From NCBI GenBank assembly GCA_964429705.1, contig CAYSDG010000002.1, positions 5,520 to 69,519 of the forward strand: DNA of 64,000 nt, written 5' to 3'. Made by a program: the position numbers and the translations under genes. Under the pieces are notes generated by a model. The model searched no databases, was not told where the DNA came from, and saw nothing but the letters and a program-made list of their open reading frames with translations. Origin of the DNA: an uncultured Oscillospiraceae bacterium. Its GTDB lineage: Bacteria; Bacillota; Clostridia; Oscillospirales; Oscillospiraceae. Below are positions 12,323 to 45,631 of this stretch, piece after piece. How positions within the stretch are numbered: the first letter of the stretch is position 1; every line of letters starts with the position of its first letter.

Positions 12323-14386
12323 ATGGATGTTTTAGATTTTCTCCCCGTCAGCAAGGAGGACATGGAAAACCGCGGCTGGTGGTACTATGATTTCCTGGTG
12401 GTCACCGCCGACGCCTACATCGACCACCCCAGCTTCGGCACCGCCATCATCGCCCGAGTGCTGGAAGCCGAGGGCTACCGGGTGGCCATTCTGGCGCAGC
12501 CCGACTGGCACAGCGCCGACGCCTTCCGCGCCATGGGCAAGCCCCGCTACGGCGTGATGATCGGCGGCGGCAACATCGACTCCATGGTGGCCCACTATAC
12601 CGCCGCCAAAAAGCGCCGCTCCACCGACGCCTACAGCCCCGGCAACAGGATGGGCCTGCGGCCTGACCGGCCCACCATCGTCTACGCCAACCGCGCCCGG
12701 GAGGCATTTCCCGATACCCCCATCATCATCGGCGGACTGGAGGCCAGTCTGCGCCGCTTCGCCCACTACGACTACTGGGACGACAAGGTCCGCCGCTCCA
12801 TCCTCTTTGATGCCCAGGCGGATCTGCTGGTCTACGGCATGGGTGAGCGGGCCGTCCGTGAGATCGCCCGGCGGCTGAGCCGGGGCGAGTCGGCGGACCA
12901 GCTCACCGACATCCGGGGCACCGCCTTCGCCGGCAAAAGCGGCGACTGCGCCTTCCCCCACGTCACCGTCCCCTCCTTTGAAAACGTGGTGGCAGACAAG
13001 CGCGACTACGCCGTAGCCACCAAGGTGGAATACGATGAGCACGACTGCATCCGCGGCAAGGCTATTCTGCAGCGCCACGGGGACCAGATCCTGGTGGTGA
13101 ATCCACCCCAGAAGCCTCTGAGCCGCCAGGAGCTGGACGAGGTAGCCGAGCTGCCCTATGCCCGGGAGGTCCACCCCATGTACGATGCTCTTGGCGGTGT
13201 GGCCGCCATCGAGGAGGTCCGCTTCTCTGTGGCCCACAACCGCGGCTGCTTCGGCGGGTGTAACTTCTGCTCCCTGGCCTTCCATCAGGGCCGGATGATC
13301 ACCTCCCGCAGCCACGAGAGCGTGATCCGGGAGGTGGAGGGCTTCACCCGCGACCCCCACTTCAAAGGCTATGTTCACGACGTGGGCGGCCCCAGTGCCA
13401 ACTTCCGCCACCCCAGCTGCCAGCAGCAGCTGAAAAACGGCATGTGCAAGAACCGCTCCTGCCTGGCCCCCACGCCCTGCAAGAATCTGGACCCCGACCA
13501 CAGCGACTATCTGGCTCTGCTGCGAAAGGTCCGGGCTGTCCCCGGGGTGAAGAAGGTCTTTATCCGCAGCGGCATCCGGTACGACTACATGCTATGCGAA
13601 AAGAACAGCGAATTCTTCTCCGATCTGGTGAAGTACCACATCTCCGGTCAGCTGAAGGTGGCCCCGGAGCACTGCTCCAGCCAGGTGCTGGACTACATGG
13701 GCAAGCCCCACTTCGATGTGTATGAAAAATTCCTGGACAAGTATTACCGCCTGAACCAGCGCTATGGGCTGGACCAGTATGTGGTGCCCTACCTCATGAG
13801 CAGTCACCCCGGCTGTACGCTGAACGACGCGGTGGACCTGGCGGTATTTCTGAACAAGACGGGCCGCCAGCCGGAGCAGGTCCAGGACTTCTACCCCACA
13901 CCCGGTACCCTCTCCACCTGCATGTGGTACACGGAGATCGACCCCCGGACCATGGAGCCGGTCTATGTGGCCAAGTCGCCCCATGACAAGGCCCTGCAGC
14001 GGGCGCTGCTGCAGTGGAAGCGGCCGGAGATGCGCCGTCTGGTCACTGAGGCTCTCCACCGGGCGGGCCGCACAGACCTGATCGGCTACAGCAAGGAGTG
14101 CCTGATCCGTCCTCTCCACAGCGGCGAACGGGCCGAGGGCCAGGACCGCAGCGGCAAGAGCAGCCCCAAGAGCGGCTCCCGGAGCAGTAAGGCTCCCGCC
14201 CGCGGCGGCAAGCCCACTGCCAAAGGCAGCAAAGCCGCGGAGGACACCCGCCGCACCGCCAAGGGGCGCGGCCAGGAGCGGGGCAAAACCGCCGCCAGAC
14301 CCGAAAAGCCTGCCCGCAAGCCCAACAGCCCCACCCACTCCAAACAGCAGCAGCGCAGCAAAGCCGCCAAGGATCGCCGCCGCTGA
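12323..14386 (+). CDS. ygiQ: YgiQ-family (UPF0313) radical SAM protein with a long Lys/Arg-rich C-terminal tail
   Basis: N-terminus YDFLVVTADAYIDHPSFGTAIIARVLEAEGYRVAILAQPDW and radical SAM motif GCFGGCNFCS. The last ~95 aa are basic and low-complexity. An alternative GTG start exists at 12305. Confidence 0.9.
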   Translation: MDVLDFLPVSKEDMENRGWWYYDFLVVTADAYIDHPSFGTAIIARVLEAEGYRVAILAQPDWHSADAFRAMGKPRYGVMIGGGNIDSMVAHYTAAKKRRSTDAYSPGNRMGLRPDRPTIVYANRAREAFPDTPIIIGGLEASLRRFAHYDYWDDKVRRSILFDAQADLLVYGMGERAVREIARRLSRGESADQLTDIRGTAFAGKSGDCAFPHVTVPSFENVVADKRDYAVATKVEYDEHDCIRGKAILQRHGDQILVVNPPQKPLSRQELDEVAELPYAREVHPMYDALGGVAAIEEVRFSVAHNRGCFGGCNFCSLAFHQGRMITSRSHESVIREVEGFTRDPHFKGYVHDVGGPSANFRHPSCQQQLKNGMCKNRSCLAPTPCKNLDPDHSDYLALLRKVRAVPGVKKVFIRSGIRYDYMLCEKNSEFFSDLVKYHISGQLKVAPEHCSSQVLDYMGKPHFDVYEKFLDKYYRLNQRYGLDQYVVPYLMSSHPGCTLNDAVDLAVFLNKTGRQPEQVQDFYPTPGTLSTCMWYTEIDPRTMEPVYVAKSPHDKALQRALLQWKRPEMRRLVTEALHRAGRTDLIGYSKECLIRPLHSGERAEGQDRSGKSSPKSGSRSSKAPARGGKPTAKGSKAAEDTRRTAKGRGQERGKTAARPEKPARKPNSPTHSKQQQRSKAAKDRRR

Positions 14387-14437
14387 ACGCCGCTTTCCCC
14401 GCACATAAATTTTTGCGTTTTAAAGTAACAAAGGGTC

Positions 14438-14466
14438 TTGACAAACCGAAAAAACGGGTGTAAAGT
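14438..14466 (+). promoter_or_regulatory. Promoter of T-box leader (copy A)
   Basis: TTGACA, 17-nt spacer, TAAAGT. Confidence 0.55.
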
Positions 14467-14472
14467 GCAAGC

Positions 14473-14765
14473 AAGTGAATAAGAAAAGCGATGACGAAGA
14501 CGGACGAGAAGGTTCTGCTCGCAGAGAGCCGGGGATGGTGGGATCCCGGCAGCAAGAGGTCTCAAGGTCCCATCCCTTCCGAGCTGGAGATCCAAACACC
14601 CATTCGGGCCAGTAGATGTCTCCCGTGACTGCCGCGTTAGCGCATAGGACTTGCTAGAGTCCGAGAGGGGTGTCCCTTGTGGGCGCAATTTGAGTGGTAC
14701 CGCGGGTACATAAAAGATTTTATGACTCGTCTCAAGAAGAAATTCTTGAGACGAGTTTTTCTTTT
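14473..14765 (+). promoter_or_regulatory. T-box riboswitch leader, copy A (inside the duplication)
   Basis: K-turn GCGATGAC.../...CGAGC, AG bulge AGAGAG, distal loop GATGGTGGGAT. T-box sequence AATTTGAGTGGTACCGCGGG at 14687-14706. Terminator ACTCGTCTCAAGAA/TTCTTGAGACGAGT plus T-run at 14725-14765. Confidence 0.85.
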
Positions 14766-14817
14766 CACTCAAAACAGTCTTTTCTCATTCGCCAGACTTT
14801 CTTACGGAGGTAACAAG

Positions 14818-15312
14818 ATGGATACCAAACATGTCAACAATCAACTGGCGGAGATCGCCTTCCGTATCCGCGAGATGCGGGACATCTGCGGCTTCACCAT
14901 GGCCGAAATGGCCCAGAAGACTGACACTACCCCGTCCGAGTACAAGACCTATGAGGCCGGGCAGGCAGATCTCCCCTTCTCCTTCCTGCACAAGTGCGCC
15001 CTGGCCTTCGGCATCGGCATCACAGCGGCGAACGGGCCGAGGGCCAGGACCGCAGCGGCAAGAGCAGCCCCAAGAGCGGCTCCCGGAGCAGTAAGGCTCC
15101 CGCCCGCGGCGGCAAGCCCACTGCCAAAGGCAGCAAAGCCGCGGAGGACACCCGCCGCACCGCCAAGGGGCGCGGCCAGGAGCGGGGCAAAACCGCCGCC
15201 AGACCCGAAAAGCCTGCCCGCAAGCCCAACAGCCCCACCCACTCCAAACAGCAGCAGCGCAGCAAAGCCGCCAAGGATCGCCGCCGCTGAACGCCGCTTT
15301 CCCCGCACATAA
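14818..15312 (+). pseudogene. Chimeric truncated ORF created by the duplication: first 69 aa (XRE HTH) of the downstream fusion gene joined out of frame to ygiQ 3' sequence
   Basis: Residues 1-69 are identical to the gene starting at 15722. After the junction at 15021 the frame reads an Ala/Pro/Arg-rich tail through duplicated ygiQ DNA. Confidence 0.7.
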
Positions 15313-15341
15313 ATTTTTGCGTTTTAAAGTAACAAAGGGTC

Positions 15342-15370
15342 TTGACAAACCGAAAAAACGGGTGTAAAGT
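15342..15370 (+). promoter_or_regulatory. Promoter of T-box leader (copy B)
   Basis: Identical to 14438-14466. Confidence 0.55.
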
Positions 15371-15376
15371 GCAAGC

Positions 15377-15669
15377 AAGTGAATAAGAAAAGCGATGACG
15401 AAGACGGACGAGAAGGTTCTGCTCGCAGAGAGCCGGGGATGGTGGGATCCCGGCAGCAAGAGGTCTCAAGGTCCCATCCCTTCCGAGCTGGAGATCCAAA
15501 CACCCATTCGGGCCAGTAGATGTCTCCCGTGACTGCCGCGTTAGCGCATAGGACTTGCTAGAGTCCGAGAGGGGTGTCCCTTGTGGGCGCAATTTGAGTG
15601 GTACCGCGGGTACATAAAAGATTTTATGACTCGTCTCAAGAAGAAATTCTTGAGACGAGTTTTTCTTTT
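15377..15669 (+). promoter_or_regulatory. T-box riboswitch leader, copy B (in front of the intact gene)
   Basis: Identical to copy A. T-box sequence at 15591-15610 and terminator at 15629-15669. Confidence 0.85.
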
Positions 15670-15721
15670 CACTCAAAACAGTCTTTTCTCATTCGCCAGA
15701 CTTTCTTACGGAGGTAACAAG

Positions 15722-17992
15722 ATGGATACCAAACATGTCAACAATCAACTGGCGGAGATCGCCTTCCGTATCCGCGAGATGCGGGACATCTGCGGCTTCA
15801 CCATGGCCGAAATGGCCCAGAAGACTGACACTACCCCGTCCGAGTACAAGACCTATGAGGCCGGGCAGGCAGATCTCCCCTTCTCCTTCCTGCACAAGTG
15901 CGCCCTGGCCTTCGGCATCGGCATCACCGATCTGCTGGAGGGCACCAGCGCCAAGCTGACCAGCTACACCGTCACCCGCAAGGGGCAGGGGCAGCAGACC
16001 GCCAAGGAGCCGGGCATCGAGATCAGCAACCTGGCCCCCCAGTTCCGCAACAAGCTGGCAGAACCCTACTATGTTACCTATGACTACGACGAGAGCCAGC
16101 AGCACATGCCCATCCATCTCACCACCCACTCCGGCCAGGAGTTCGACATCGTCCTTTCCGGTCAGCTGAAGGTCCAGGTGGGCAACAATGTGGAGATCCT
16201 CAGCGAGGGCGACAGCATCCTCTATAACTCCTCCACCCCCCACGGCATGATCGCCGTCGGCGGTGAGAAGTGTGTGTTCTGCGCTGTGGTCATCTCCGGC
16301 GAGAAGACCAGCGAGGCCACCGTCCGTGAAAACCTGGTGCAGGGCAGCCGCAGCGAAAAGTATGTCTGCAGCCCCTTCATCAACGCGGTGGAGGATGAGA
16401 AGGGCGTTTTGCAGTCCCTCACCTTCCCCAACGCCGACAAGTTCAACTTCGCCTTCGACTGTGTGGATGCCATCGCCGAGAAGTATCCCGAGAAGCTGGC
16501 CATGGTGCATCTGGACAAAAACAAGGTGGAGCGCCGCTTTACCTTTACCGATATGGCGCGGGAGTCCAGCCGTGCCGCCAACTACTTCAAGACCCTGGGC
16601 ATCAAAAAGGGCGACCGGGTGATGCTGGTGCTGAAGCGGCACTACCAGTTCTGGTTTGCCATCCTGGGGCTGCACAAGCTGGGGGCTATCGCCATCCCCG
16701 CCACCAATCAGCTCCAGGAGAAAGATTTCACCTACCGCTTCAACGCCGCTCAGGTCAGCGCCATCCTCTGCACTGCCGACGGAAATGTGGCCCGTCAGGT
16801 GGAGCTGGCGGAGAAGGACAGCCCCTCCCTGGTCACCAAGATCCTGGTGGGCGGCAGCCGGGATGGCTGGTATGACTTCGACCAGGAGGTACAGCGCTTC
16901 CGCAGCAAGTTCGACCGCACTGCCGATGCCCCCTGCGGCGAGGACCTGATGCTGATGTTCTTCACCAGCGGCACCACCGGCTATCCCAAGATCGCCGCCC
17001 ACAACTACAAGTACGCGCTGGGCCACTACATCACCGCCAAGTACTGGCACTGTGTCCATGCCGACGGCCTGCACTTCACCATCAGCGAGACCGGCTGGGG
17101 CAAGGCCCTGTGGGGCAAGCTGTACGGCCAGTGGCTGTGCGAGGGCGCTGTGTTCACCTATGATTTTGACCGCTTCGACGCCGCCGACATTCTCCCCATG
17201 TTCGCCCGCTACCACATCACCACCTTCTGTGCGCCTCCCACCATGTACCGGATGCTCATCAAGCAGGATCTCAGCAAGTATGACCTCAGCTCCATCCAGC
17301 ACGCCACCACCGCAGGTGAGGCCCTGAACCCCGAGGTCTTCCGCCAGTTCGAGGCACAGACCGGTCTGCAGATCTATGAGGGCTTCGGCCAGACCGAGAC
17401 CACCCTCACCGTGGGCAACCTCATCGGCAACAAGCAGAAGATTGGCTCCATGGGCAAGCCCATCCCCACCTACGACCTGGTCCTGGTGGACGGCGACGGC
17501 AACGAGGTCAAGCGCGGTGAAAACGGCGAGATCTGCATCCGTGTTCCCGAGGGCAACGCCCCCTGCGGCCTGTTCCACGGCTATTACCGGGACGAGGCCC
17601 AGACCCTGGAGGTCTACCACGACGGGCTCTATCACACCCGCGATGTGGCCTGGCAGGACGAGGACGGCTACCTCTGGTATGTGGGCCGGGCCGACGACGT
17701 GATCAAGTCCTCCGGCTACCGCATCGGGCCCTTCGAGATCGAATCCGTCATCATGGAGCTGCCCTATGTGCTGGAGTGCGGCGTCAGCGCCGCGCCGGAC
17801 GAGGTCCGCGGCCAGGTGGTCAAGGCCAGCATCGTGCTGGTCCCGGGTACCGAGGGCACGGACGAGCTGAAGAAGGAGATCCAGGAGTACGTCAAAAAGC
17901 GCACCGCCCCCTACAAGTACCCCCGTATCGTGGTCTTCCGGGACGAGCTGCCCAAGACCATCAGCGGCAAGATCCAGCGCAACAAGCTGTAA
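15722..17992 (+). CDS. XRE-HTH + cupin + AMP-forming acyl-CoA synthetase (medium/short-chain, ACSM/MbcS-like) fusion, paralog 1
   Basis: HTH in aa 1-70 and cupin (HSGQEFDIVLSGQLKVQVG...STPHGM). Adenylation motifs FFTSGTTGYPK, GFGQTET, YHTRDVAWQDEDGYLWYVGRADDVIKSSGYRIGPFEIES and PKTISGKIQRNKL. RBS GGAGG upstream of ATG 15722. Confidence 0.85.
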   Translation: MDTKHVNNQLAEIAFRIREMRDICGFTMAEMAQKTDTTPSEYKTYEAGQADLPFSFLHKCALAFGIGITDLLEGTSAKLTSYTVTRKGQGQQTAKEPGIEISNLAPQFRNKLAEPYYVTYDYDESQQHMPIHLTTHSGQEFDIVLSGQLKVQVGNNVEILSEGDSILYNSSTPHGMIAVGGEKCVFCAVVISGEKTSEATVRENLVQGSRSEKYVCSPFINAVEDEKGVLQSLTFPNADKFNFAFDCVDAIAEKYPEKLAMVHLDKNKVERRFTFTDMARESSRAANYFKTLGIKKGDRVMLVLKRHYQFWFAILGLHKLGAIAIPATNQLQEKDFTYRFNAAQVSAILCTADGNVARQVELAEKDSPSLVTKILVGGSRDGWYDFDQEVQRFRSKFDRTADAPCGEDLMLMFFTSGTTGYPKIAAHNYKYALGHYITAKYWHCVHADGLHFTISETGWGKALWGKLYGQWLCEGAVFTYDFDRFDAADILPMFARYHITTFCAPPTMYRMLIKQDLSKYDLSSIQHATTAGEALNPEVFRQFEAQTGLQIYEGFGQTETTLTVGNLIGNKQKIGSMGKPIPTYDLVLVDGDGNEVKRGENGEICIRVPEGNAPCGLFHGYYRDEAQTLEVYHDGLYHTRDVAWQDEDGYLWYVGRADDVIKSSGYRIGPFEIESVIMELPYVLECGVSAAPDEVRGQVVKASIVLVPGTEGTDELKKEIQEYVKKRTAPYKYPRIVVFRDELPKTISGKIQRNKL

Positions 17993-18000
17993 AGACCGCT

Positions 18001-18048
18001 CCACCCCGCAAAAGCGCATGCCGCACAGGCTGCGCTTTCGCGGGGTGG
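18001..18048 (+). terminator. Hairpin after paralog 1 (possible terminator, no clear T-run)
   Basis: CCACCCCGCAAAAGCGCA-loop-TGCGCTTTCGCGGGGTGG. Confidence 0.4.
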
Positions 18049-18097
18049 GCCGTCACCGATACAGCGAATTCCCCCTTTAAATAACTAAAAAATCATC

Positions 18098-18126
18098 TTG
18101 CTTTTTCCCATCGGATATGGTAATAT
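18098..18126 (+). promoter_or_regulatory. Promoter of the second T-box leader
   Basis: TTGCTT, 17-nt spacer, TAATAT. Confidence 0.5.
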
Positions 18127-18132
18127 GGTGCC

Positions 18133-18412
18133 AATTTAATAGCAAAGGCTGTGACGGAGAGGGCTCCGGGAATGCTTTTCAGAGAACCGGCGGTTGGTGT
18201 GAGCCGGAAAAGCGGAACCGTTTGCTTGTAGCTCCTGAGCCGGAGGGAAGAAACCGTCCGCCGGAAGTAGAACCCTCTCGTGATTGCCGCGTAAGAGCAT
18301 ATGGCTTGCTGGAGCCTGATGAGTGGCGCAGAGATGCGCAATTTGAGTGGTACCGCGGGTATGGAATACTCGTCTCAAAGATTACGATATCTTTGGGGCG
18401 AGTTTTGTTTTT
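18133..18412 (+). promoter_or_regulatory. T-box riboswitch leader 2
   Basis: K-turn GGCTGTGAC.../...CTGAGCC, AG bulge CAGAGAA, distal loop GGTTGGTGTGA. T-box sequence AATTTGAGTGGTACCGCGGG at 18340-18359. Terminator ACTCGTCTCAAAG/CTTTGGGGCGAGT plus TTTGTTTTT at 18368-18412. Confidence 0.85.
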
Positions 18413-18445
18413 CCCCAAAGGGATGCAAGCAGGAGGAGACCGCAT

Positions 18446-20737
18446 ATGAATCAGAAAATGACTGCCGGACTGGATCTGAAGCTGCTGGAGATCGCCGGGC
18501 GCATCCGGGATCTGCGGGAGATCGTTGGTCTGAGCGAGGAGGAGATGGCCCGGCGCACCGGTGTCACCCTGGCGGAATACCGCCAGTGCGAGGCCGCCGA
18601 GAGCGACCTGAACTTCGCCTTTATCTACCGCTGCGCCCAGGCCTTCGGCGTGGATGTCACCGACATCATCGAAGGCGCCAGCCCCCGGCTGAGCAATTAC
18701 ACCCTTACCCGCGCCGGAGAGGGCCAGCACATCGAGCAGGCCCACGGCATGACCTACTACAACATGGCTGCCCGCTTCAAAAAACGCGTGGCAGAGCCTC
18801 TGTACGTGGTGGCGGAGTACAGCGATGAGGCCCAGCTGCGCCCCATCGACGTGACCACCCACTCCGGACAGGAGTGCGACATCGTCCTCTCCGGCCAGCT
18901 GAAGGTCCAGGTGGGTGAGCACACGGAGATTTTGAATCCCGGCGACATCATCTACTATAATTCCACTGCCCCCCACGGCATGATCGCCACCGGCGGAAAG
19001 GACTGCGTCTTCTACGCCATCGTCCTCAACGGCGACGGCGAGGAGACCGCCCCCCAGAAGGAGCCGGCCCCCGCCCCCCGTCTCCAAAAGCCCGCCGAGC
19101 AGCGGGAGGAGCGGATCTGGGAGCAGTTTATCACCGTGGAGGAGAGTCCCGACGGCTCTCTGAAAAAGATCGACTTCAAGGACCCCGACCACTTTAACTT
19201 TGCCTTTGACGTGGTGGACGGCCTGGCCCGGCGCAAGCCCGACAAGCTGGCCATGGTCCACGTGGACCGCAACAAGGAGGAGCGCTTCTTCACCTTTGCC
19301 GATATGAGCCGCTACTCCAGCAAGGCCGCCAACTACTTCCAGTCCCTTGGCATCAAGCGGGGCGACCGGGTGCTGCTGATCCTGAAGCGGCACTATCAGT
19401 TCTGGTTCGCCATCCTGGGCCTGCATAAGCTGGGCGCTGTGGCGCTGCTGGCCAGCAATCAGATGCTGACCCACGACCTGGAATACCGCTATGAGGCCGC
19501 CGGGATCAGCGCCGTCATCTGTACCTCCAACGGAGAGGTCTCCCGCCACGCCGAGGCCGCCGCGGAAAAGTTCCCCGGCATGACCAAGATCATGGTGGAT
19601 GGCTGCCGGGAGGGCTGGCATGATTTTGACAACGAGTTCCGCATGTTCTCTGAGGATTTCATCCGCACCAAGGACGCCCCCTGCGGCGAGGACCTGATGC
19701 TGATGTTCTTCACCAGCGGCACCACCGGCTTCCCCAAGGCCGCTGCTCACTGCTACAAGTACCCCCTGGGCCACTTTATCACCGCCAGATACTGGCACTG
19801 CGTGGACCCCGACGGCCTGCACCTGACCATCTCCGACACCGGCTGGGCCAAGAGCATGTGGGGCAAGCTGTACGGCCAGTGGCTGAACGAGGCCGCCGTC
19901 TTCGTCTATGACTTCGACCGCTTCGATGCCGCCGACATCCTCCCCATGTTCGCCAAGCACCACATCACCACCTTCTGTGCGCCCCCCACCATGTACCGGA
20001 TGCTCATCAAGCAGGACATCAGCAAATACGACCTCAGCTCCATCCAGCACGCCACCATCGCAGGCGAGGCCCTGAACCCCGAGGTGTTCCACCAGTTCAA
20101 GAAGGCCACCGGTCTGAGCCTGATGGAGGGCTTTGGCCAGAGCGAGACCACCGTGATGATCGGCAACCTCATCGGCATGAGTCCCAAGATCGGCTCCATG
20201 GGCAAGCCCGTCCCCCTGTATCCTGTGGATCTGGTGGACAGCGACGGCAACAGTGTGCCGGACGGCCAGGTGGGTGAGATCGTCATCCGCGCCGACAAGA
20301 CCGACATCTGCGGCCTGTTCCGCGGCTACTATAACAACAGCGACAGTACCGATGCCGCCTGGCACGATGGCGTGTACCACACCGGTGACACCGCCTGGCG
20401 GGATGAGGACGGCTACTTCTGGTATGTTGGCCGGGTGGACGACCTCATCAAGTCCAGCGGCTACCGTATCGGGCCCTTTGAGATCGAATCCGTCATCATG
20501 GAGCTGCCCTACGTGCTGGAGTGCGGCGTCAGTGCCGCGCCGGACGAGGTCCGCGGCCAGGTGGTCAAGGCCAGTATCGTGCTGGTTCCCGGCACCGAGG
20601 GCACCGAGGAGCTGAAAAAGGAGATCCAGAACTACGTCAAGCAGCATACCGCGCCCTATAAATATCCCCGGATCATCGTCTTCCGGGACGAGCTGCCCAA
20701 GACGGTGAGCGGTAAGATCATTCGCAACAAACTGTGA
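18446..20737 (+). CDS. XRE-HTH + cupin + AMP-forming acyl-CoA synthetase fusion, paralog 2
   Basis: Same three-domain layout as 15722-17992: FFTSGTTGFPK, GFGQSET, YHTGDTAWRDEDGYFWYVGRVDDLIKSSGYRIGPFEIES, PKTVSGKIIRNKL. RBS AGGAGGAG upstream. Confidence 0.85.
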   Translation: MNQKMTAGLDLKLLEIAGRIRDLREIVGLSEEEMARRTGVTLAEYRQCEAAESDLNFAFIYRCAQAFGVDVTDIIEGASPRLSNYTLTRAGEGQHIEQAHGMTYYNMAARFKKRVAEPLYVVAEYSDEAQLRPIDVTTHSGQECDIVLSGQLKVQVGEHTEILNPGDIIYYNSTAPHGMIATGGKDCVFYAIVLNGDGEETAPQKEPAPAPRLQKPAEQREERIWEQFITVEESPDGSLKKIDFKDPDHFNFAFDVVDGLARRKPDKLAMVHVDRNKEERFFTFADMSRYSSKAANYFQSLGIKRGDRVLLILKRHYQFWFAILGLHKLGAVALLASNQMLTHDLEYRYEAAGISAVICTSNGEVSRHAEAAAEKFPGMTKIMVDGCREGWHDFDNEFRMFSEDFIRTKDAPCGEDLMLMFFTSGTTGFPKAAAHCYKYPLGHFITARYWHCVDPDGLHLTISDTGWAKSMWGKLYGQWLNEAAVFVYDFDRFDAADILPMFAKHHITTFCAPPTMYRMLIKQDISKYDLSSIQHATIAGEALNPEVFHQFKKATGLSLMEGFGQSETTVMIGNLIGMSPKIGSMGKPVPLYPVDLVDSDGNSVPDGQVGEIVIRADKTDICGLFRGYYNNSDSTDAAWHDGVYHTGDTAWRDEDGYFWYVGRVDDLIKSSGYRIGPFEIESVIMELPYVLECGVSAAPDEVRGQVVKASIVLVPGTEGTEELKKEIQNYVKQHTAPYKYPRIIVFRDELPKTVSGKIIRNKL

Positions 20738-20765
20738 GTTTCTGTTGGCCGACCGCGGTGGAAGG

Positions 20766-20791
20766 GTGTTCCGCGCCGGAGCGCGGAACAC
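20766..20791 (+). other. GC-rich hairpin between paralog 2 and the ATPase gene (weak terminator or processing site)
   Basis: GTGTTCCGCGC-cgga-GCGCGGAACAC followed by TCTTAAAAG. Confidence 0.35.
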
Positions 20792-20857
20792 TCTTAAAAG
20801 ACTATCGCCCAGATACCAACAATCGACTTTTACTCTTGAAAAAGAAAAGAGGTCACT

Positions 20858-21568
20858 ATGGACCACAAACGCATCACCCTCTTCGCCGGACACTACGGCT
20901 CCGGCAAAACCAACATCGCCGTCAACTACGCCCTCCATCTGGCACATCTGGGCAAACAGGTGGCCATCGCCGACCTGGACATCGTCAATCCCTACTTCCG
21001 CACCAAGGACAGCGCCCAGGAGCTGGCGGCGGCAGGCGTCGACCTGATCTCCCCCCAGTTTGCCAACAGCAATGTGGACCTTCCCGCCCTTCCGGCGGAG
21101 GCCTATCGTCTGGTGGAGAACCGCAGTCTCTTCTCCGTCATGGACATCGGCGGCGATGATCGGGGCGCCTACGCCCTGGGCCGCTATACGCCCTTTATCA
21201 AGGCGGAGAACAACTATCGGATGGCCTTTGTGGCCAACTGCTACCGCCCCCTGACCCGCACCCCGGCAGACGCGCTGGAGGTCATGCGGGAGATCGAGCT
21301 GGCCTGCGACCTCCCCTTTACCGACCTGGTCAACAACGCCAATCTGGCCCACGAGACTACCGCCCAGTCGGTACTGGACTCTCTGGACTTTATGGCGGAG
21401 TTGAGTCAGCTGAGCGGGCTGCCCATCTGGATGACCGCCGCAGAGGAGGCTGTGGCCTCTCAGCTGGCAGGGCAGATCGATGATCTGCTCCCCATGCAGC
21501 TGCAGGCAAAATACTTCGATCTGCCGGAGCAGCGCCGCGCCCCCGCGCCCCGCCCCATATTCGGGTAA
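20858..21568 (+). CDS. P-loop NTPase of the MinD/ParA/CooC-like (SIMIBI) type, function unknown
   Basis: N-terminal Walker A FAGHYGSGKTNIAVNYA and IADLDIVNPYF. No DNA-binding or membrane segment is seen. Confidence 0.65.
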   Translation: MDHKRITLFAGHYGSGKTNIAVNYALHLAHLGKQVAIADLDIVNPYFRTKDSAQELAAAGVDLISPQFANSNVDLPALPAEAYRLVENRSLFSVMDIGGDDRGAYALGRYTPFIKAENNYRMAFVANCYRPLTRTPADALEVMREIELACDLPFTDLVNNANLAHETTAQSVLDSLDFMAELSQLSGLPIWMTAAEEAVASQLAGQIDDLLPMQLQAKYFDLPEQRRAPAPRPIFG

Positions 21569-21631
21569 GACCGCCGGGCAGCTATCACTACGTTTATCCA
21601 TTCCATTTAGATATAAGAAGGAGGAATCCCC

Positions 21632-21838
21632 ATGGCAAAAGTCACATTTCTGACCGATCTCTGCAAGGGCTGCGGCCTGTGCGTGGAGGCCTGCCCCAAG
21701 GGCATCCTGGCCATTGCCGCCGGCAAGATCAACAAGAAGGGCTATTCCCCTGCGGAGATGACCGATCAGGACAAATGCGTCGGCTGCGCCTTCTGCGCCA
21801 CCATGTGCCCCGACTGCATCATCACCGTGGAAAAGTAA
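21632..21838 (+). CDS. 2-oxoacid:ferredoxin oxidoreductase delta subunit (2x[4Fe-4S] ferredoxin)
   Basis: Two CxxCxxCxxxCP motifs (CKGCGLCVEACP, CVGCAFCATMCP) in 68 aa. Confidence 0.9.
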   Translation: MAKVTFLTDLCKGCGLCVEACPKGILAIAAGKINKKGYSPAEMTDQDKCVGCAFCATMCPDCIITVEK

Positions 21839-21849
21839 GGAGGTAGACT

Positions 21850-22911
21850 ATGGCAGAGAGAGTTTTGATGAAGGGCAATGAAGCCATTGCCGAAGCCGCC
21901 ATCCGGGCCGGCTGCCGCCACTATTTTGGCTATCCCATCACCCCCCAGACGGAGGTTGCCGCCTATATGGCCAAGAAGCTTCCCAAGATCGGCGGCGTAT
22001 TCCTGCAGGCGGAGAGTGAGATCGCATCCATCAACATGGTCTACGGCGCTGCCGCCACCGGCACCCGCGTGATGACCTCCTCCTCCAGCCCCGGAATCAG
22101 CCTGATGAGCGAGGGCCTCAGCTATATCGCCGGCTCCGACGTTCCCGCCTTTGTGGTGAACGTTCAGCGCGGCGGCCCCGGTCTGGGCGGTATCCAGCCC
22201 AGCCAGAGCGACTATTTCCAGGCCACCAAGGGCGGCGGGCACGGCGACTACCGCATGATCGTGCTGGCTCCCGCCTCCGTACAGGAGATGGCCAGCCTGA
22301 CTATCAAGGGTCTCAACCTGGCGGACAAATACCTGATGACCAGCATGATCCTGGCTGACGGCACCATCGGCCAGATGATGGAGCCCATCTCCTTCGAGGA
22401 CGCCGAGATCGAGACCTATGACAAACCCTGGGCGCTCACCGGCACCAATATGGAGCGCAAGCACAACATCGTCAACTCCCTGTACCTGAAGCCCGACGAG
22501 CTGGAGGCCAAGAACTTCGAGCGCTATGAGCGCTATCGTCTGGTAGAGGAAAACGAACCCATGTGGGAGGAGTACATGATGGAGGATGCCGAATACTGTG
22601 TGGTAGCCTTCGGCATCGCCGCCCGCGTGGCCAAGAACGCCGTGGTTGCCGCCCGCAGCGAGGGCATCAAGGTGGGCATGATCCGCCCCATCACCCTGTG
22701 GCCCTTCCCCAAGAAGGCCCTGCGCGCCGCTGCCGACCAGGTGAAATCCTTCATCTCTGTTGAGCTGAGCATGGGTCAAATGATCGAGGACATCCGCCTG
22801 GCCACCGAGTGCAAAAAGCCCGTCAGTCTCTGCAACCGGGCGGGCGGCATGATCCCCAGCCCCGAGCAGGTGCTGGAGAGCATCCGCAAGGCACAGAAAG
22901 GAGAGAACTGA
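21850..22911 (+). CDS. 2-oxoacid:ferredoxin oxidoreductase alpha subunit (VOR/KOR type)
   Basis: MKGNEAIAEAAIRAGCRHYFGYPITPQTE N-terminus typical of the family. Operon context. Confidence 0.9.
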   Translation: MAERVLMKGNEAIAEAAIRAGCRHYFGYPITPQTEVAAYMAKKLPKIGGVFLQAESEIASINMVYGAAATGTRVMTSSSSPGISLMSEGLSYIAGSDVPAFVVNVQRGGPGLGGIQPSQSDYFQATKGGGHGDYRMIVLAPASVQEMASLTIKGLNLADKYLMTSMILADGTIGQMMEPISFEDAEIETYDKPWALTGTNMERKHNIVNSLYLKPDELEAKNFERYERYRLVEENEPMWEEYMMEDAEYCVVAFGIAARVAKNAVVAARSEGIKVGMIRPITLWPFPKKALRAAADQVKSFISVELSMGQMIEDIRLATECKKPVSLCNRAGGMIPSPEQVLESIRKAQKGEN

Positions 22912-22912
22912 T

Positions 22913-23674
22913 ATGGCCATCGTTTTTCAGAAGCCCCACGCACTGACTGACGCAGTGCTGCACTATTGCCCCGGCTGCCCCCACGGCATCATCCACCGCC
23001 TGGTGGCTGAAGCTATCGACGATCTGGGCATCGAGGGCAAGGCCATCGGCGTGGCCCCCGTCGGCTGCGCGGTGATGGCTTACGACTACTTCACCTGCGA
23101 CATGATCGAGGCCGCCCACGGCCGCGCTCCCGCCACCGCCACCGGCATCAAGCGCTGCCGCCCCGACAACATCGTGTTCACCTATCAGGGCGACGGCGAT
23201 CTGGCCTCCATCGGTATGGCAGAGACGGTCCACGCCGCAGCCCGCAATGAGAACATCACCATCATCTTCGTCAACAACGCCATCTACGGCATGACCGGCG
23301 GCCAGATGGCCCCCACCAGCCTCCCCGGTCAGGTCACCCAGACCAGCCCCTACGGCCGTGATGTCAAGCACTGCGGCTGGCCCATCCGGGTCTGCGAGAT
23401 GCTCTCCACGCTGGAGGGTCCCGAGTATGTGGCCCGCGTGGCAGTGAACAACGTCAAGAACGTCAATGCCGCCAAGAAGGCCATCAAGAAGGCTTTCCAG
23501 AACCAGGTGGAGGGCAAGGGTTTCTCCCTGATCGAGGTCGTTTCCGCCTGTCCCACCAACTGGGGTATGACCCCCCAGCAGGCACTGGAGTGGGTGGAGA
23601 GCGATATGATCCCCTACTACCCCCTGGGCGTCTACAAGGACCGGACCGATGCAAAGGAGGCTGAGGCAAAATGA
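22913..23674 (+). CDS. 2-oxoacid:ferredoxin oxidoreductase beta subunit (TPP-binding)
   Basis: YCPGCPHG Cys motif and TPP motif GDGDLASIGMAE...NNAIYGMTGGQ. Confidence 0.9.
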   Translation: MAIVFQKPHALTDAVLHYCPGCPHGIIHRLVAEAIDDLGIEGKAIGVAPVGCAVMAYDYFTCDMIEAAHGRAPATATGIKRCRPDNIVFTYQGDGDLASIGMAETVHAAARNENITIIFVNNAIYGMTGGQMAPTSLPGQVTQTSPYGRDVKHCGWPIRVCEMLSTLEGPEYVARVAVNNVKNVNAAKKAIKKAFQNQVEGKGFSLIEVVSACPTNWGMTPQQALEWVESDMIPYYPLGVYKDRTDAKEAEAK

Positions 23675-24210
23675 AAACGACACAGATCCTGATCGCTGGC
23701 TTTGGCGGCCAGGGCATCCTGTTCGCCGGCAAGTTCCTGGCCTACAAGGGCCTTCTGGAGGACCTGCAGGTCTCCTGGCTGCCCAGCTACGGCCCCGAGA
23801 TGCGCGGCGGCACCGCCAACTGCAATGTCATCCTTTCCGACGATCCCGTGGGCTCCCCCATCGTCACCAGCCCCGACGTACTCATCGCCATGAACCTGCC
23901 CAGCCTGCAGAAATACGTGGACACCGTGGTACCCGGCGGCCAGATCTATGTGGACTCCACCCTCATCGCCGAGAAGGTGACACGTACCGATGTGGAGGTC
24001 TACTACATCCCCGCCACCGCCATGGCCAAGGAGGCGGGTGTCAGCACCCTGGCCAACATGATCATCATGGGCCACCTGCTGCAGAACAACAACCAGCTGT
24101 CCTTCGAGGGCGCGCAGGTCACCGTGGAGAAGCTGGTCCCCGCCAAAAAGCAGGAGCTGGTTGGCCTGAACATGAAGGCACTGGAAGCAGGCCGCGACTA
24201 TAAGGGCTGA
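23671..24210 (+). CDS. 2-oxoacid:ferredoxin oxidoreductase gamma subunit
   Basis: [18 protein letters not shown]-terminus. Its start overlaps the beta-subunit stop by 4 nt. Confidence 0.9.
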
Positions 24211-24213
24211 GCT

Positions 24214-25002
24214 ATGAAAATTTCCTGTATTCAGATGGATATGCGCCTGGGCGAGGTGGACTACAACTTCGCCCACGCCCAGGCCCTCATCCGGGAAACG
24301 GTGGCGCGGGAGCACAGCGATGTGGTGGTCCTGCCCGAGACCTGGAACACCGGCTTCTTCCCCGCGGATCTGGCCCCCTGTGCCGACGAGGATGGCCGAC
24401 GCACCAAGGAGACTTTCTCCGCCCTGGCCAGGGAGCTGAGCGTGAATATCGTCTGCGGCAGCGTTGCCACCAAAAAGGCCTGCGGCTTCTGCAACACCGC
24501 CTATGTCTTTGACCGCAGCGGCACGGTGATCGCGGAATACGACAAGACCCACCTCTTCACCCCCAGCGGTGAGCACCACAGTTTCACCCCCGGCTCCCAC
24601 ACCTGCAGCTTCATGCTGGAGGGCCGCAAGTGCGCCCTCATCATCTGTTATGACATTCGCTTTCCCGAGCTGACCCGCACCTGCACGCTGCAGGGCGTGG
24701 ATCTGCTGTTTGTGGTGGCCCAGTGGCCCGACAAGCGCTCCATGCACCTGGACACCCTGGCCCGGGCCAGAGCCATTGAGAACCAGATGTTCCTGGCCCT
24801 GTGCAACAGCGTCGGCACCGCCGGTCAGACCCGCTGCGGCGGCCACAGCGCCCTTATCGACCCCTGGGGCGAGTATCTGGCCCAGGCGGGCGAGAACGAG
24901 GAGGTCATCACCGGTCAGCTGGACTTCAGCACGATCGAGGGCATCCGCTCCTCCATCAATGTCTTCCGGGACAGGCGCCCGGAGCTCTACTGCGTCAACT
25001 AA
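24214..25002 (+). CDS. Carbon-nitrogen hydrolase family protein (omega-amidase/Nit2/YafV-like)
   Basis: Glu-Lys-Cys triad context: VVLPETWNTGF, EYDKTHLF, LIICYDIRFPE. Confidence 0.8.
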   Translation: MKISCIQMDMRLGEVDYNFAHAQALIRETVAREHSDVVVLPETWNTGFFPADLAPCADEDGRRTKETFSALARELSVNIVCGSVATKKACGFCNTAYVFDRSGTVIAEYDKTHLFTPSGEHHSFTPGSHTCSFMLEGRKCALIICYDIRFPELTRTCTLQGVDLLFVVAQWPDKRSMHLDTLARARAIENQMFLALCNSVGTAGQTRCGGHSALIDPWGEYLAQAGENEEVITGQLDFSTIEGIRSSINVFRDRRPELYCVN

Positions 25003-25030
25003 ACAAAACATAAGAAAGGCGGCAATCACC

Positions 25031-26107
25031 ATGTCTTACACCTTCCCTGTCACCCGCACCACCACCCCCAAGGCAAAGCCCGACCAGAGCAACCTGGGCT
25101 TCGGCAAGTATTTCACTGACCACATGTTCATCATGGACTACGACGAGGGCCAGGGCTGGCACGACGGTCGCATCGTCCCCTACGCTCCCATCAGCCTGGA
25201 CCCCGGCTCCGCTGTGCTGCACTACGCCCAGATGATGTTCGAGGGCATGAAGGCCTACCTCACTCCCGACGGTAAGGTCAACCTCTTCCGCCCCTACATG
25301 AACGCCGCCCGCATCAACCGCTCCGGCGAGCGCATGTGCTTCCCCCACCTGGATGAGGACCTGTTCGTTGATGCGGTGAAGTCCATCGTGCAGACGGATG
25401 CCGACTGGATCCCCAGCCACCCCGGCACCGCCCTGTACATCCGTCCCTACATGATCGCTGACGAGGTCAGCTTCTCCGTGGAGCCCGCCAAGCACTGCCT
25501 GTTCATCATCATCCTGTGCGCTGTGGGTGCCTACTACGACATCAACCGCGGCGGCCTGACCGGCAGCCACATCTATGTGGAGGATGAGTACATCCGCGCC
25601 GCCAAGGGCGGCACCGGCTTTGCCAAGTGCGGCGGCAACTACGCCGGCGGTATGCGCGCCACCAAGAAGGCTCTGGAGAACGGCTGCAAGGAGGTCCTGT
25701 GGCTGGATGCCAGAGAGCACAAGTATGTAGAGGAGGTCGGCACCTCCAACGCCTTCTTCATGATCGGCGATAAGATCATCACCGCTCCCCTGGGCGGCTC
25801 CATCCTGCCCGGCGTCACCCGTGACAGCACCATCACCCTGCTGCGCAAGTGGGGCTACAACGTGGTGGAGCGCCTGCTGAGCATCGACGAGGTGGAGGCA
25901 GCCAGCAAGGACGGCAGCCTGAAGGAGGCTTGGGCCACCGGCACCGCCTGCGTCATCTCCCCCATCGGCTATCTGAAGTACCAGGGCCGCGACATCGTCA
26001 TCAACGGCGGCGATGTTGGCCCCGTCAGCCAGAAGCTGTATGACACCATCTACGGCATGCAGACCGGCGTGGTGGCAGACGATATGGACTGGATCGTTCA
26101 GCTGTAA
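25031..26107 (+). CDS. ilvE: Branched-chain amino acid aminotransferase
   Basis: 358 aa class IV aminotransferase: GFGKYFTDHMF, LHYAQMMFEGMKAY, AKGGTGFAKCGGNYA, GVTRDS. The track ORF's upstream extension lies in non-coding-looking sequence. Confidence 0.92.
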   Translation: MSYTFPVTRTTTPKAKPDQSNLGFGKYFTDHMFIMDYDEGQGWHDGRIVPYAPISLDPGSAVLHYAQMMFEGMKAYLTPDGKVNLFRPYMNAARINRSGERMCFPHLDEDLFVDAVKSIVQTDADWIPSHPGTALYIRPYMIADEVSFSVEPAKHCLFIIILCAVGAYYDINRGGLTGSHIYVEDEYIRAAKGGTGFAKCGGNYAGGMRATKKALENGCKEVLWLDAREHKYVEEVGTSNAFFMIGDKIITAPLGGSILPGVTRDSTITLLRKWGYNVVERLLSIDEVEAASKDGSLKEAWATGTACVISPIGYLKYQGRDIVINGGDVGPVSQKLYDTIYGMQTGVVADDMDWIVQL

Positions 26108-26132
26108 ATATCCCAAAAAACACAGAGCAAAG

Positions 26133-26164
26133 ACCGCCGCCGGAGTATCCGGCGGCGGTTTTTG
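26133..26164 (+). terminator. Intrinsic terminator after ilvE
   Basis: ACCGCCGCCGG-agtat-CCGGCGGCGGT followed by TTTTT. Confidence 0.8.
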
Positions 26165-28997: not shown

Positions 28998-31900
28998 ATG
29001 AAAAAACGGATCGAAAGCACCCTTCTGGCGCTGGCCATCCTGCTGAGCCTGTGCTCACCCCTGGGCGGGCTGATCCCGCAGGCTCAGGCAGCGGAGACGG
29101 AGGAGCCGCCTACAGCTGGCACCTGGGGAGATAATCTCCGCTGGGAGCTCTCCGGCACAACCCTGATGATCACGGGTACCGGCGACATGAAGGAGGGCGA
29201 AGAACACTACAATGATGACCCTTACGATACGCGGGAGCAGCTATACTTCCCGTGGTACCATTTGACGTTTGATTCCGTGGTCATCGGTGAGGGTGTCACC
29301 TCCATCGCTCCAGGCGCGTTTGCCGATTATAACCTTCGCATGTGGAAAACACCTGAGTTCATCACTCTGCCGAGCACCCTGAAAACCATTGGCAACTCCG
29401 CATTCTATGGCTTTTGCGGCGAGGTGACCATCCCCTCCGGTGTGACCAGCATTGGCGCATACGCGTTCTACGGATTTCCTGCTGTCACTTTGTCCGAAGG
29501 TCTGGAAAGCATCGGGGACTGCGCATTTTGGGGATGCCGTCTGTCGTCTATCGAGTTACCGTCCACGCTGACACATCTGGGTGACTTTGCATTTGCTGCC
29601 AGCACATCCACGTCAACGATCCAAAACATAACGGTAGCGGAGGGGAGCGCGACCTTTTGCTCCGTGGACGGTGTATTGTTCAACATGGACCAGACCGAGC
29701 TGATCCTGTACCCGCAGGGGTGCACGGAAAACACCTATATGATCCCCGATACAGTGACAAAGATCCGCACCGGTGCCTTCTATGGGTGCAAGGCTCTGAC
29801 CGATATCGGCCTCCCGGATGATCTGAGGGAGCTGGGGGACGGTGCATTCGCATACAGCGGACTGGTGAGCATATGGCTGTCGAGGACATTGACCACCATA
29901 GGAGATGGCGTGTTTGCCGGATGTCGGGATCTGGATGCGATCTATGTGCTTTCCGGAAACACCCACTTCCGCGCTGTGGACGGCGTGTTATTTGACTGGT
30001 TCCCGATGGATGAGCCGGAGCCGGTTGCCCTGTCGACGGATGAGCCGGAGGCGACCGCAGGCCCCACGGAACTGATTGCCTATCCATCCGGAAAACAGAA
30101 CGAGACCTATGATATCCCGGAGAGCGTTACGTCCATTCGGCCCGCCGCATTCTGCGAGAATGCGTACATCAAGGAGCTGACGGTCCCCGATACGGTGAAC
30201 AGGATCGACGCGTATACTTTTTACAAATGCACCAGTCTGACCTCGATCACCCTTCCCAGTCAGCTTGACGATCTTGGGGACTATGTGTTCAGTAATTGCC
30301 CCAACTTGCAAAGTGTCACCATTCCCAGCGGGATCACTTCCATTGGCGACTGTGCATTCTCCGGTTGTAGTTCTTTGCCTCATATCGTGATCCCGGAGGG
30401 CGTACAGGTCATCGGAACAAGTGCATTCGAACGGTGCCGCGCCCTGTGCAGTGCTGCGATCCCGAATACTGTGACCGTGATCAAATCCTATGCTTTTGAC
30501 GATTGCAGCAATTTGACTGAGTTTACGATCCCCAACAAAATAGAGGCAATCGGATCGCTGGCATTCCAGGGGACAGGCTGTACCGGCGAAAATACGGCAA
30601 CACTGGACCTGGTCATCCCCTCTACGATACAATATATGGGGGACCAGATATTCTATTGGAGTCACGGATTGCGCAGCATTACGCTCCCGAGCACGTTGGA
30701 GGTCATACCGAGTGGCTTTGCATGGGAGTGCAGCAATTTGCAGGAGGTCACGATCCCGGAAGGGGTCTCCATAATCACCCCCATGGCCTTCGATCACTGC
30801 ACAAGTCTGCGGGAACTCTCCCTCCCGAAGAGTATATCCGTGATCGATGCCGGGGCGTTCCAGAGCAGCGGTCTGGAAAAGGTCTACTACGCCGGCACAC
30901 GGGCCGAATGGGGTCAAATCACGATCTATGAACAGCAGAATACCGAGCTGATCACCGCCCTCATCTGCTGTACCGATGGGTATTATGGTATGGAGGACCC
31001 GGATCGTCCGCAGTACGCAACGATCAACAGGGTAGAGACATCACTATTCAAGGAATCTCCTATCCCTCCGTTCAGTAAGGAGTTTTATTTTCCGCTGGCC
31101 CGCGGCACCACAGTCACTTTATTTTTAGACTACAGCTGGTTTGAACAAAACAGTGCCCTGCTGGATACCTTCAAATTTCTCGGTAAAATCCGCATCTCAT
31201 CCGGCGGCAAGGAACTGTACCAGACAAAAGATGGCCAAGTAACCTTTGATGCGGCCGCAAACAGTGAAACGGAAAGCAGCTTGACGTTTTCCCTCCTCTC
31301 CTCTAATTTGAGCGAACCCTTCCAGCCAAATCAGCCCGTTGATATTGAAATTTTAGACACAAACGAAACTATCCTGGCAAAAGGCACCGGCCGCTCTTTC
31401 CCCATCCAGAGCTGGCTCTTCGGAAACTATGACGCAACGATCAGCAAGACTCTGATCAAAAGCGTATTGGGCAAGACCAAGGGGAAAGAGATCATTAAAA
31501 AAGTCAAGCCCCCCATAGGCGAATCCGGCATGTGCTTCGGCGAAGCACTGACAGCCTCTCTGGTCAACTTCGGTGAGATCTCTCCCACACTGTTTGAAAA
31601 CTGCACCATACTGGACCAGGTGCAGCTGGACACCGCTATGACAGGCATATCCTCAGCGTGGTGGAAGGAAATGACAGGCTCATACGAGAACAAAACCGCT
31701 AATGGGTTGATCCAGATATCGCATGTCATGCAGCATAAACCCTCGGTCCAGAAAACGCTGGAGCGGACAGCAGGCGATTTCGAGCAGCTGATAGAATGGA
31801 TCGATCTTTATAAAGCAGGCAAATCCGCCATGCCCCTGATCTATATGAAGGCAAAGAATATCCACACCATCTGCGCCTATGATTATGAGATCTTCAAATC

Positions 31901-45590: not shown

Positions 45591-45631
45591 TTGTCCTGAA
45601 CAGCGGATTTTTATGTCTGCCGGTCTGCTTT

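Follow-up and report, generated by a model that had tools for sequence, protein, structure and literature searches.

The 64,000-nucleotide stretch of DNA analysed here (the window) comes from an uncultured Oscillospiraceae bacterium (GenBank assembly GCA_964429705.1, contig CAYSDG010000002.1, positions 5,520 to 69,519 of the forward strand). It carries, at positions 14438 to 26164, an operon in which T-box leaders precede the genes of two paralogous AMP-forming acyl-CoA ligases. Genes for a P-loop protein, a four-subunit 2-oxoacid:ferredoxin oxidoreductase (OFOR), a C-N hydrolase and a branched-chain amino acid aminotransferase (BCAT) follow, all on the forward (+) strand. The operon is probably a tRNA-gated salvage system that produces isoleucine and valine from exogenous branched short-chain fatty acids; on the sequence evidence we put the probability of this reading at roughly 0.72. 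The riboswitch class and the biochemical route are both known; their combination here forms an undescribed regulon in which each amino acid has a leader and a ligase of its own, and both ligases represent an undescribed enzyme fusion of helix-turn-helix (HTH), cupin and ligase domains. We infer the substrates, the direction of flux and the roles of the P-loop protein, the hydrolase and the HTH-cupin module.

How would such a system work? Uncharged tRNA-Ile would pair with the AUC specifier of its leader, and its free CCA end with the UGGU bulge, so that the antiterminator is stabilized. The antiterminator would allow readthrough into ligase 1, which would convert 2-methylbutyrate to 2-methylbutyryl-CoA. 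Uncharged tRNA-Val at the GUA leader would turn on ligase 2 (isobutyrate to isobutyryl-CoA) and, with it, the P-loop accessory protein, the four-subunit OFOR of the VOR type, the hydrolase and BCAT. VOR, with reduced ferredoxin, would reductively carboxylate the acyl-CoAs to 2-oxoisovalerate and 2-oxo-3-methylvalerate, and the aminotransferase would complete valine and isoleucine. The C-N hydrolase might, with low confidence, serve as an omega-amidase that pulls glutamine-dependent transamination forward. A preliminary description of this DNA had proposed, without saying which tRNAs are sensed, that branched-chain amino acid starvation switches on the scavenging of branched acids. The proposal is supported by the specifier codons, by the kinship of the ligases with MacsMa and MbcS, by the VorB and BCAT assignments and by the accepted VOR reaction.

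T-box leaders

A permissive cmscan search of the region gave three full-length matches to the T-box model RF00230 (model positions 1-219): two leaders at 14482-14737 and 15386-15641 (69.1 bits, E 4.7e-14 each) and one at 18142-18380 (78.7 bits, E 1.6e-16). The permissive scan of the whole window revealed no T-box beyond these three. A default Rfam scan of the window at the gathering score reported none, because the gathering score of RF00230 is high (93 bits). Orthologous leaders in lower-GC relatives pass it, with 93.3-100 bits in the loci L026, L046 and L063, and the sub-threshold scores in the window therefore point to divergence and not to a different element. The preliminary description had named two leaders, within 15377-15669 and 18133-18412. 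Both are real, full-length and 5' of a ligase gene, but they score below the gathering threshold, and there are three leaders, the additional one preceding a chimeric open reading frame (ORF).

The cmscan alignment places the Stem I features in these leaders, i.e. the UGA...GAGC K-turn, the AGAGA bulge and the GGUG distal loop. The T-box sequence AATTTGAGTGGTACCGCGGG occurs in every leader, and all three contain AAUUUGAGUGGUACCGCGGG as an antiterminator with the UGGN bulge. Terminator hairpins of 15 bp followed by T-runs are found at 14724-14757, 15628-15661 and 18368-18403; they share the 3' antiterminator strand of the T-box, which makes the two structures mutually exclusive. The K-turn, AG bulge, distal loop and terminator that had been read from the letters of the DNA were thus seen again in the alignment and in a hairpin scan. 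Minimum free energy folding of the whole leaders recovered the terminators and not Stem I, and the specifiers were therefore assigned without these folds. In all structural features tested the leaders belong to the T-box family, yet they fail the curated score.

The two identical leaders will be called copy A (14482-14765, specifier AUC at 14572-14574, T-box sequence from 14687) and copy B (15386-15669, specifier AUC at 15476-15478). A promoter-like site, TTGACA-17-TAAAGT, was found by a consensus scan at 14438-14466, ahead of copy A, and is repeated identically at 15342-15370. The third leader (18142-18412) has its specifier, GUA, at 18228-18230, followed by a G and the CUCC helix. Its putative promoter at 18098-18126 (TTGCTT, 17 nt, TGgTAATAT, with an extended -10) was read by eye; the consensus scan did not report it.

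Between the ligase-1 stop codon and this promoter, directly 3' of the former, lies a GC-rich hairpin without a T-run (17996-18053), read from the sequence, in which spurious matches to microRNA models also fall. It could be a weak terminator or a stabilizer of the mRNA 3' end, and it bears on whether transcripts from the Ile leader get to the Val leader.

Specifier codons and predicted tRNA specificity

Which tRNAs do the leaders sense? About 120 orthologous leaders from 80 genomes were aligned to read the specifier loop, taken as the codon, one base, a 4-bp helix and then the NGAGC strand of the K-turn, a geometry that we assume from the Geobacillus glyQS Stem I structure. The leaders of ligase 1 invariably read AUC (Ile; 37 leaders), while those of ligase 2 read GUA (64 leaders) or GUC (3), both Val codons. 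A third leader, found only in relatives and absent from the window, reads CUC or CUG (Leu; about 7 were parsed) and is located 3' of the BCAT gene in about 13 relatives. These synonymous switches indicate that the true codon position is being read. The antiterminator bulge of the window leaders reads UGGU, which matches A73, the discriminator base of Ile, Val and Leu tRNAs. The aligned sequences support the prediction that the AUC leader senses tRNA-Ile and the GUA leader tRNA-Val.

The ligases and their predicted substrates

Ligase 1 (756 amino acids, 15722-17992) and ligase 2 (763 amino acids, 18446-20737) have the same domain order in Pfam: an XRE-type HTH, Cupin_2, AMP-binding and AMP-binding_C. 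The two ligase domains are recognized at 211-218 bits (PF00501) and 74-76 bits (PF13193). That both genes encode AMP-forming acyl-CoA synthetase paralogs had been stated previously and stands; that both are HTH-cupin fusions had been overlooked.

The closest structure to the ligase domains is that of MacsMa from Methanosarcina acetivorans (PDB 3ETC, 609 bits; the runner-up has 345), an enzyme with a preference for 2-methylbutyrate (PMC10455477). Among the NCBIfam models, both ligases score highest with MbcS of Staphylococcus aureus (430.5 and 433.8 bits), a synthetase that activates 2-methylbutyrate and isobutyrate selectively (PMC10026030). Trp414 of Escherichia coli Acs aligns with Gly in both ligases (G556 and G564); Gly at this position, together with an alternative Trp (MacsMa Trp259), is typical of medium-chain enzymes (PMC10455477). 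The Trp of the AKYW motif in the ligases aligns with 3ETC, with the numbering uncertain by one.

When 38 Ile-leader ligases were compared with 67 Val-leader ligases, eleven positions cleanly separated the two types, ten of them in the N-terminal module. The sole discriminating residue of the catalytic domain is in the motif DTGW[G/A]K: Gly460 in ligase 1 and Ala468 in ligase 2. Gly is present in all 38 Ile-type enzymes and in MacsMa, and Ala in 66 of the 67 Val-type enzymes. The position aligns with Val310 of E. coli Acs, which we take, from the alignment, to line the acetate pocket. A Gly in one pocket and an Ala in the other fits what would be expected for the larger 2-methylbutyrate and the smaller isobutyrate, which differ by one methyl group. 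From homology and this pocket difference, ligase 1 is predicted to be a 2-methylbutyrate-CoA ligase and ligase 2 an isobutyrate-CoA ligase.

The single Val-leader ligase with Gly at the pocket position is the ligase-2 ortholog at 9907 in locus L049 (ISDTGWGKALWGK), and this exception constitutes a natural test case for the substrate-size hypothesis.

Oxidoreductase, aminotransferase and accessory genes

The OFOR genes were assigned with Pfam and NCBIfam. They are in the order delta (68 amino acids, 2 x [4Fe-4S] ferredoxin-like, 21632-21838), alpha (POR_N and PFOR_II, 21850-22911), beta (TPP_enzyme_C, 22913-23674) and gamma (POR domain, 23671-24210). The alpha subunit passes the NCBIfam VorB subfamily model NF005507 with 544.7 bits (cutoff 399). 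The aminotransferase (class IV, 358 amino acids, 25031-26107) passes two BCAT equivalog models, NF009897 (452.3 bits, cutoff 307) and TIGR01123 (369.8 bits, cutoff 250). The gene order given in the preliminary description, from the two ligases to ilvE, agrees with Pfam and NCBIfam, and its VOR and BCAT assignments agree with the thresholds passed by the alpha subunit and the aminotransferase. So does its strong terminator at the operon end (26133-26164), where the hairpin scan found a 12-bp GC-rich hairpin (26133-26159) followed by TTTT. Its further claim, that VOR-type enzymes carry out reductive carboxylation, holds for 2-oxoisovalerate: its ferredoxin-dependent formation from isobutyryl-CoA and CO2 is accepted as an anabolic reaction, to which genes have been assigned in methanogens (PMC3087415).

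The protein encoded between ligase 2 and the OFOR (236 amino acids, 20858-21568) was classed as a SIMIBI-class P-loop NTPase from Pfam and a structure model. It has no NCBIfam match, and the fold search yielded only the generic class: the model has a predicted local distance difference test (pLDDT) score of 82, and the nearest folds are signal recognition particle GTPases and ATPase-type HypB, with template modelling scores of about 0.5. The SIMIBI class includes many metallocentre maturation factors. Among relatives the gene is always immediately 5' of the OFOR delta gene. Our guess is that the product is a maturation or accessory factor for the OFOR.

Members of this P-loop family form at least 8000 clusters and are unnamed or annotated 'hypothetical protein' in every source. 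In the loci L004 and L053, which have a second vorDABC set, a more distant copy (36-38% identity) is found alongside it.

The C-N hydrolase (262 amino acids, 24214-25002) matches PF00795 with 178.7 bits, and the Glu-Lys-Cys motifs are visible as LPETW, YDKTHLF and CYDIRFPE. Its best family is the YafV-like PRK10438 (130.9 bits, cutoff 249), which we believe to represent E. coli YafV, an omega-amidase. Among relatives, the hydrolase gene occurs inside the operon in three different arrangements, which suggests a coupling to the transaminase. The protein is possibly an omega-amidase that hydrolyses 2-oxoglutaramate from glutamine-dependent transamination, a role to be regarded with low confidence.

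Conservation of the arrangement

The fusion ligase is represented by at least 8000 protein clusters and, in species-representative genomes, by at least 582 confirmed stretches; among the matches listed, all records are from uncultured gut or rumen Clostridia. Synteny was counted in 80 fetched loci of different species, with downstream genes counted in those loci that have enough downstream sequence. The arrangement [T-box]-ligase 1-[T-box]-ligase 2-P-loop-vorDABC-(C-N hydrolase)-BCAT recurs in 80/80 of these loci, with tandem ligases in 48. The P-loop gene together with vorAB is present in 40 of 52 loci, BCAT in 29 of 45, and the C-N hydrolase gene is in the operon in 7 of 45. The conservation of this arrangement is far beyond chance.

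Relatives have, in addition, an operon under the Leu T-box that is absent from the window, e.g. at 16677-21691 in L026 and 16767-20999 in L063. It is also found in L009, L035, L039, L047, L054, L058, L059, L067 and L080, and probably in L005 and L057. The Leu T-box (CUC/CUG) scores 124-127 bits in Rfam and lies directly 3' of the aminotransferase gene. Under its control are a LeuA-like synthase of 459 amino acids, which is divergent and falls below the LeuA cutoffs, an 832-amino acid protein in which a xylose-isomerase-like TIM barrel is fused to an AMP-binding ligase, and an Amidohydro_2 protein.

The HTH-cupin module

In the N-terminal module two domains pass their Pfam thresholds, HTH_3 with 26-28 bits (threshold 23) and Cupin_2 with about 47 bits (threshold 27.2). 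Between the two paralogs, identity is 45% in the HTH, 52% in the cupin and 72% in the ligase domain. The ten discriminating residues of the module are at residues 61-119 of ligase 2, a segment that covers the last part of the HTH, the linker and the cupin's first half, and each paralog's version of the module is near-invariant over dozens of species. This paralog-specific conservation suggests that whatever the module reads is not the same in the Ile branch and the Val branch.

What is the module related to? A profile search of 1.8 billion representatives showed that its nearest relatives beyond the fusions are stand-alone XRE-cupin proteins of about 185 amino acids, which match it end to end and have a weak similarity to PuuR. 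The structure model of the module is poor (pLDDT 59.5), and its fold matches, to 1Y9Q-type regulators and also to the enzymes HppE and HEPD, indicate the architecture class only. The HTH-like domain of HppE and HEPD presumably has a structural role. A search of about 118 orthologous upstream regions found, apart from the promoter and Stem I, no conserved operator-like palindrome or k-mer; this search covered orthologous promoter regions, and binding elsewhere in the genome is possible.

Could the module be a second, paralog-specific sensor that acts over the T-box, with the cupin binding isoleucine or valine, or the cognate acid? This is a possibility that we hold tentatively and with some doubt. 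Such a sensor might exert allosteric feedback on the first committed step, or bind DNA through its HTH in a BirA-like manner. The pathway would then be confined to times when the amino acid is in short supply and the precursor can be used, and thousands of gut and rumen Clostridia would possess an undescribed kind of fusion between enzyme and regulator.

Direction of flux and alternative explanations

What gives the pathway its direction? Surveyed T-box regulons comprise aminoacyl-tRNA synthetase genes, then amino acid biosynthesis genes and then transporters (PMC3766115). That the operon would be induced by the uncharged cognate tRNA thus favours an anabolic direction. The preliminary description had relied on this T-box logic and on the irreversibility of the ligase; the first carries the direction, but the second is not decisive alone. 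It is weakened by some syntrophs, in which ligases of the AMP-forming type can work in reverse.

Apart from this weakened argument, several observations weigh against the salvage of branched acids for amino acid synthesis. With respect to the RNA elements, the window leaders (69.1, 69.1 and 78.7 bits) are below the gathering score of 93, and the base 3' of AUC in the Ile leaders of the window is C, not the usual purine; in the 37 Ile leaders this base is A in 23, C in 12 and G in 2 (purine in 25/37). A shifted UCN (Ser) specifier frame in the Ile leaders is formally possible. It is judged unlikely, as it would imply an invariant C after the codon and a shorter helix, and would clash with the paralogous Val and Leu leaders. 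With respect to the enzymes, the ligases reach about half of the MbcS equivalog cutoff (850) and are not equivalogs, and MbcS itself feeds lipid synthesis and not amino acids. The OFOR beta, gamma and delta subunits match generic 2-oxoacid or 2-oxoglutarate OFOR models, all below cutoffs, and both ligases carry an HTH-cupin fusion without an assigned role.

The layout of the operon also leaves the logic of a pure Ile limitation incomplete, as VOR and BCAT are located only behind the Val leader. The 2-methylbutyryl-CoA made under such a limitation might be used if there is a basal level of expression, if another VOR exists elsewhere or if co-limitation is habitual. Synthesis of Val, Leu and Ile had been claimed earlier; Ile and Val specifiers are present in the window, but Leu is left uncovered there. 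No ilv or leu genes were found in the surveyed 1-48 kb of the window. In the same 1-48 kb, there is no recognizable branched-chain amino acid transporter.

Alternatively, the ligases might provide the branched acyl-CoA primers from which membrane fatty acids are made, the role that MbcS has in S. aureus. Scarcity of isoleucine and valine would leave amino-acid-derived primers short, and the T-boxes would induce acid scavenging for lipids. This is unlikely as the main function. It agrees with MbcS being the best NCBIfam model, an enzyme whose demonstrated role is to provide primers for branched-chain fatty acids (PMC10026030), and with the transcription of ligase 1 alone behind the Ile leader, without VOR or BCAT. 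Ligase 2, however, is co-transcribed with VOR and BCAT, which links the acyl-CoA to the amino acid, and the retention of VOR and BCAT in the loci counted above speaks against it as well. A supply of primers would also leave the signal of the uncharged tRNA in place, whereas the genes of surveyed T-box regulons act on the amino acid that is sensed (PMC3766115). Lipid-primer and amino-acid uses are mutually compatible.

Are the fusions primarily transcription factors or sensors, in which the adenylating domain processes a ligand or makes a co-repressor, as in BirA? The concentration of ten of the eleven paralog-discriminating residues in the HTH-cupin module, the full-length homology of the module to stand-alone XRE-cupin proteins with weak PuuR similarity, and the HTH_3 and Cupin_2 scores above threshold would all agree with a regulator. 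Yet the ligase domains are the most conserved part (72% against 45-52%) and keep full AMP-binding and C-terminal domains, and the orthologous promoter regions have no conserved operator-like motif. The combination of an HTH-like domain with a cupin, as far as the low-confidence model permits the comparison, also occurs in HppE and HEPD, enzymes in which we assume the helical domain to be structural. A primarily regulatory role is considered quite unlikely.

Catabolic fermentation of branched-chain amino acids, from BCAT over VOR to acyl-CoA and, with the AMP-forming ligase reversed, to the acid, is very improbable: BCAT and VOR are reversible and are used in such fermentation by other Clostridia, and gene content alone leaves the direction unfixed, but induction by the uncharged cognate tRNA would degrade the limiting amino acid itself, the specifier codons match the pathway products, and the fermentative routes known to us use phosphotransacylase and kinase or CoA transferase, not AMP-forming ligases. 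A route for aromatic acids (phenylacetate, indoleacetate) was also considered and was rejected on account of the Ile and Val specifiers, the BCAT transaminase and the VorB-type OFOR.

A tandem duplication at the operon start

The identity of leader copies A and B results from a perfect 904-bp tandem duplication (14117-15924, + strand; 14117-15020 followed by 15021-15924), with a CAC microhomology at the junction 15020/15021. The duplicated unit runs from the 3' end of a radical-SAM gene over the promoter and the Ile T-box into ligase 1, of which it includes the first 203 nt. As a consequence, only copy B precedes an intact gene, and copy A precedes a chimeric ORF of 164 amino acids (14818-15312), a duplication product that joins the first 68 amino acids (HTH) of ligase 1 to an out-of-frame reading of the radical-SAM gene tail. 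The 30-mer at the junction was searched in public metagenome contigs and is absent from them, and among the fetched loci, the close relatives L003 and L020 are without the duplication. The duplication either arose recently at the level of the strain or is an artefact of the assembly.

Other features of the window

A tRNA gene at 10503-10591 (-) has a long variable arm (56.8 bits) and the anticodon loop GGA, which suggests a tRNA-Ser, unrelated to the T-box specifiers. A 1301-amino acid BspA-type leucine-rich-repeat protein is encoded at 28998-32903 (+); the third-position GC of its gene, 0.69, is lower than that of the neighbours, and it may be a horizontally acquired surface protein. Two divergently oriented cobalamin riboswitches, at 45235-45453 (-) with 72.7 bits and at 45604-45795 (+) with 84.1 bits, have a periplasmic-binding-protein gene (43954-45093, -) on one side and, on the other, a gene with a nitrogenase-component-1-like domain (45669-47192, +). 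A gene for a CobB/CobQ-like amidotransferase (37163-38518) is near them.

Relation to known systems

The leaders resemble the Leu T-box of the Bacillus subtilis ilv-leu operon (RF00230) in the parts of Stem I, the T-box sequence with its UGGN bulge, the mutually exclusive terminator and the control of branched-chain amino acid supply. They differ from the T-box family in what they would control, i.e. fatty-acid salvage and not ilv/leu de novo synthesis, aminoacyl-tRNA synthetases or transporters, and from RF00230 in that the window copies are below the gathering threshold. In contrast to the B. subtilis system, Ile and Val leaders are here in series (with Leu in relatives), each before its own ligase. 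The surveys of T-box regulons examined, among them PMC3766115, do not mention acyl-CoA or ferredoxin oxidoreductase, and a survey of 2008 also makes no mention of CoA, oxidoreductase or aminotransferase. The full-text literature searched gave no link of a T-box to branched fatty acids or reductive carboxylation; major T-box reviews are outside its coverage, and a prior mention is possible.

MacsMa shares with the ligases the Gly at the Acs Trp414 position and the Trp of AKYW, and with ligase 1 the Gly at the Acs Val310 position, but it is archaeal and is without the N-terminal HTH-cupin module; the MacsMa literature examined gives no physiological role or regulation. [quoted passage not shown] The 2-oxoisovalerate synthase (VOR) of Methanothermobacter is likewise a four-subunit OFOR and carboxylates isobutyryl-CoA and its homologues with reduced ferredoxin to the 2-oxo acid from which valine is made; the classical reductive carboxylation in the rumen belongs with it as a known counterpart. 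The window VOR differs in being bacterial and in belonging to a tRNA-sensing operon with dedicated ligases, a P-loop protein and BCAT. Stand-alone XRE-HTH and cupin regulators (PuuR-like; 1Y9Q) have the same two-domain architecture, and the homology extends over the N-terminal 195 residues of the ligases; in the ligases, by contrast, the module forms one polypeptide with an adenylating enzyme, and the search for an operator found none. No description of an HTH-cupin-ligase fusion was found in the full-text literature searched.

Biological significance

Branched short-chain fatty acids are usually seen as dead-end markers of protein fermentation in the gut. In rumen bacteria, labelling studies reportedly indicated that branched acids are carboxylated back to amino acids. 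No bacterial genes or regulation for this route were found in the literature that could be searched. The locus represents a complete candidate gene set for it, in which the regulatory RNA itself would give direction and specificity, and T-box regulons would extend beyond synthetases, de novo biosynthesis and transporters. Testable annotations arise for three large 'hypothetical' families, and the locus could aid the design of media for uncultured gut Clostridia. The branched acids used by the operon are most likely those excreted by other gut microbes. Several hundred genomes at species level, from uncultured Oscillospiraceae, Acutalibacteraceae and relatives, carry the system, which could represent a major route of cross-feeding.

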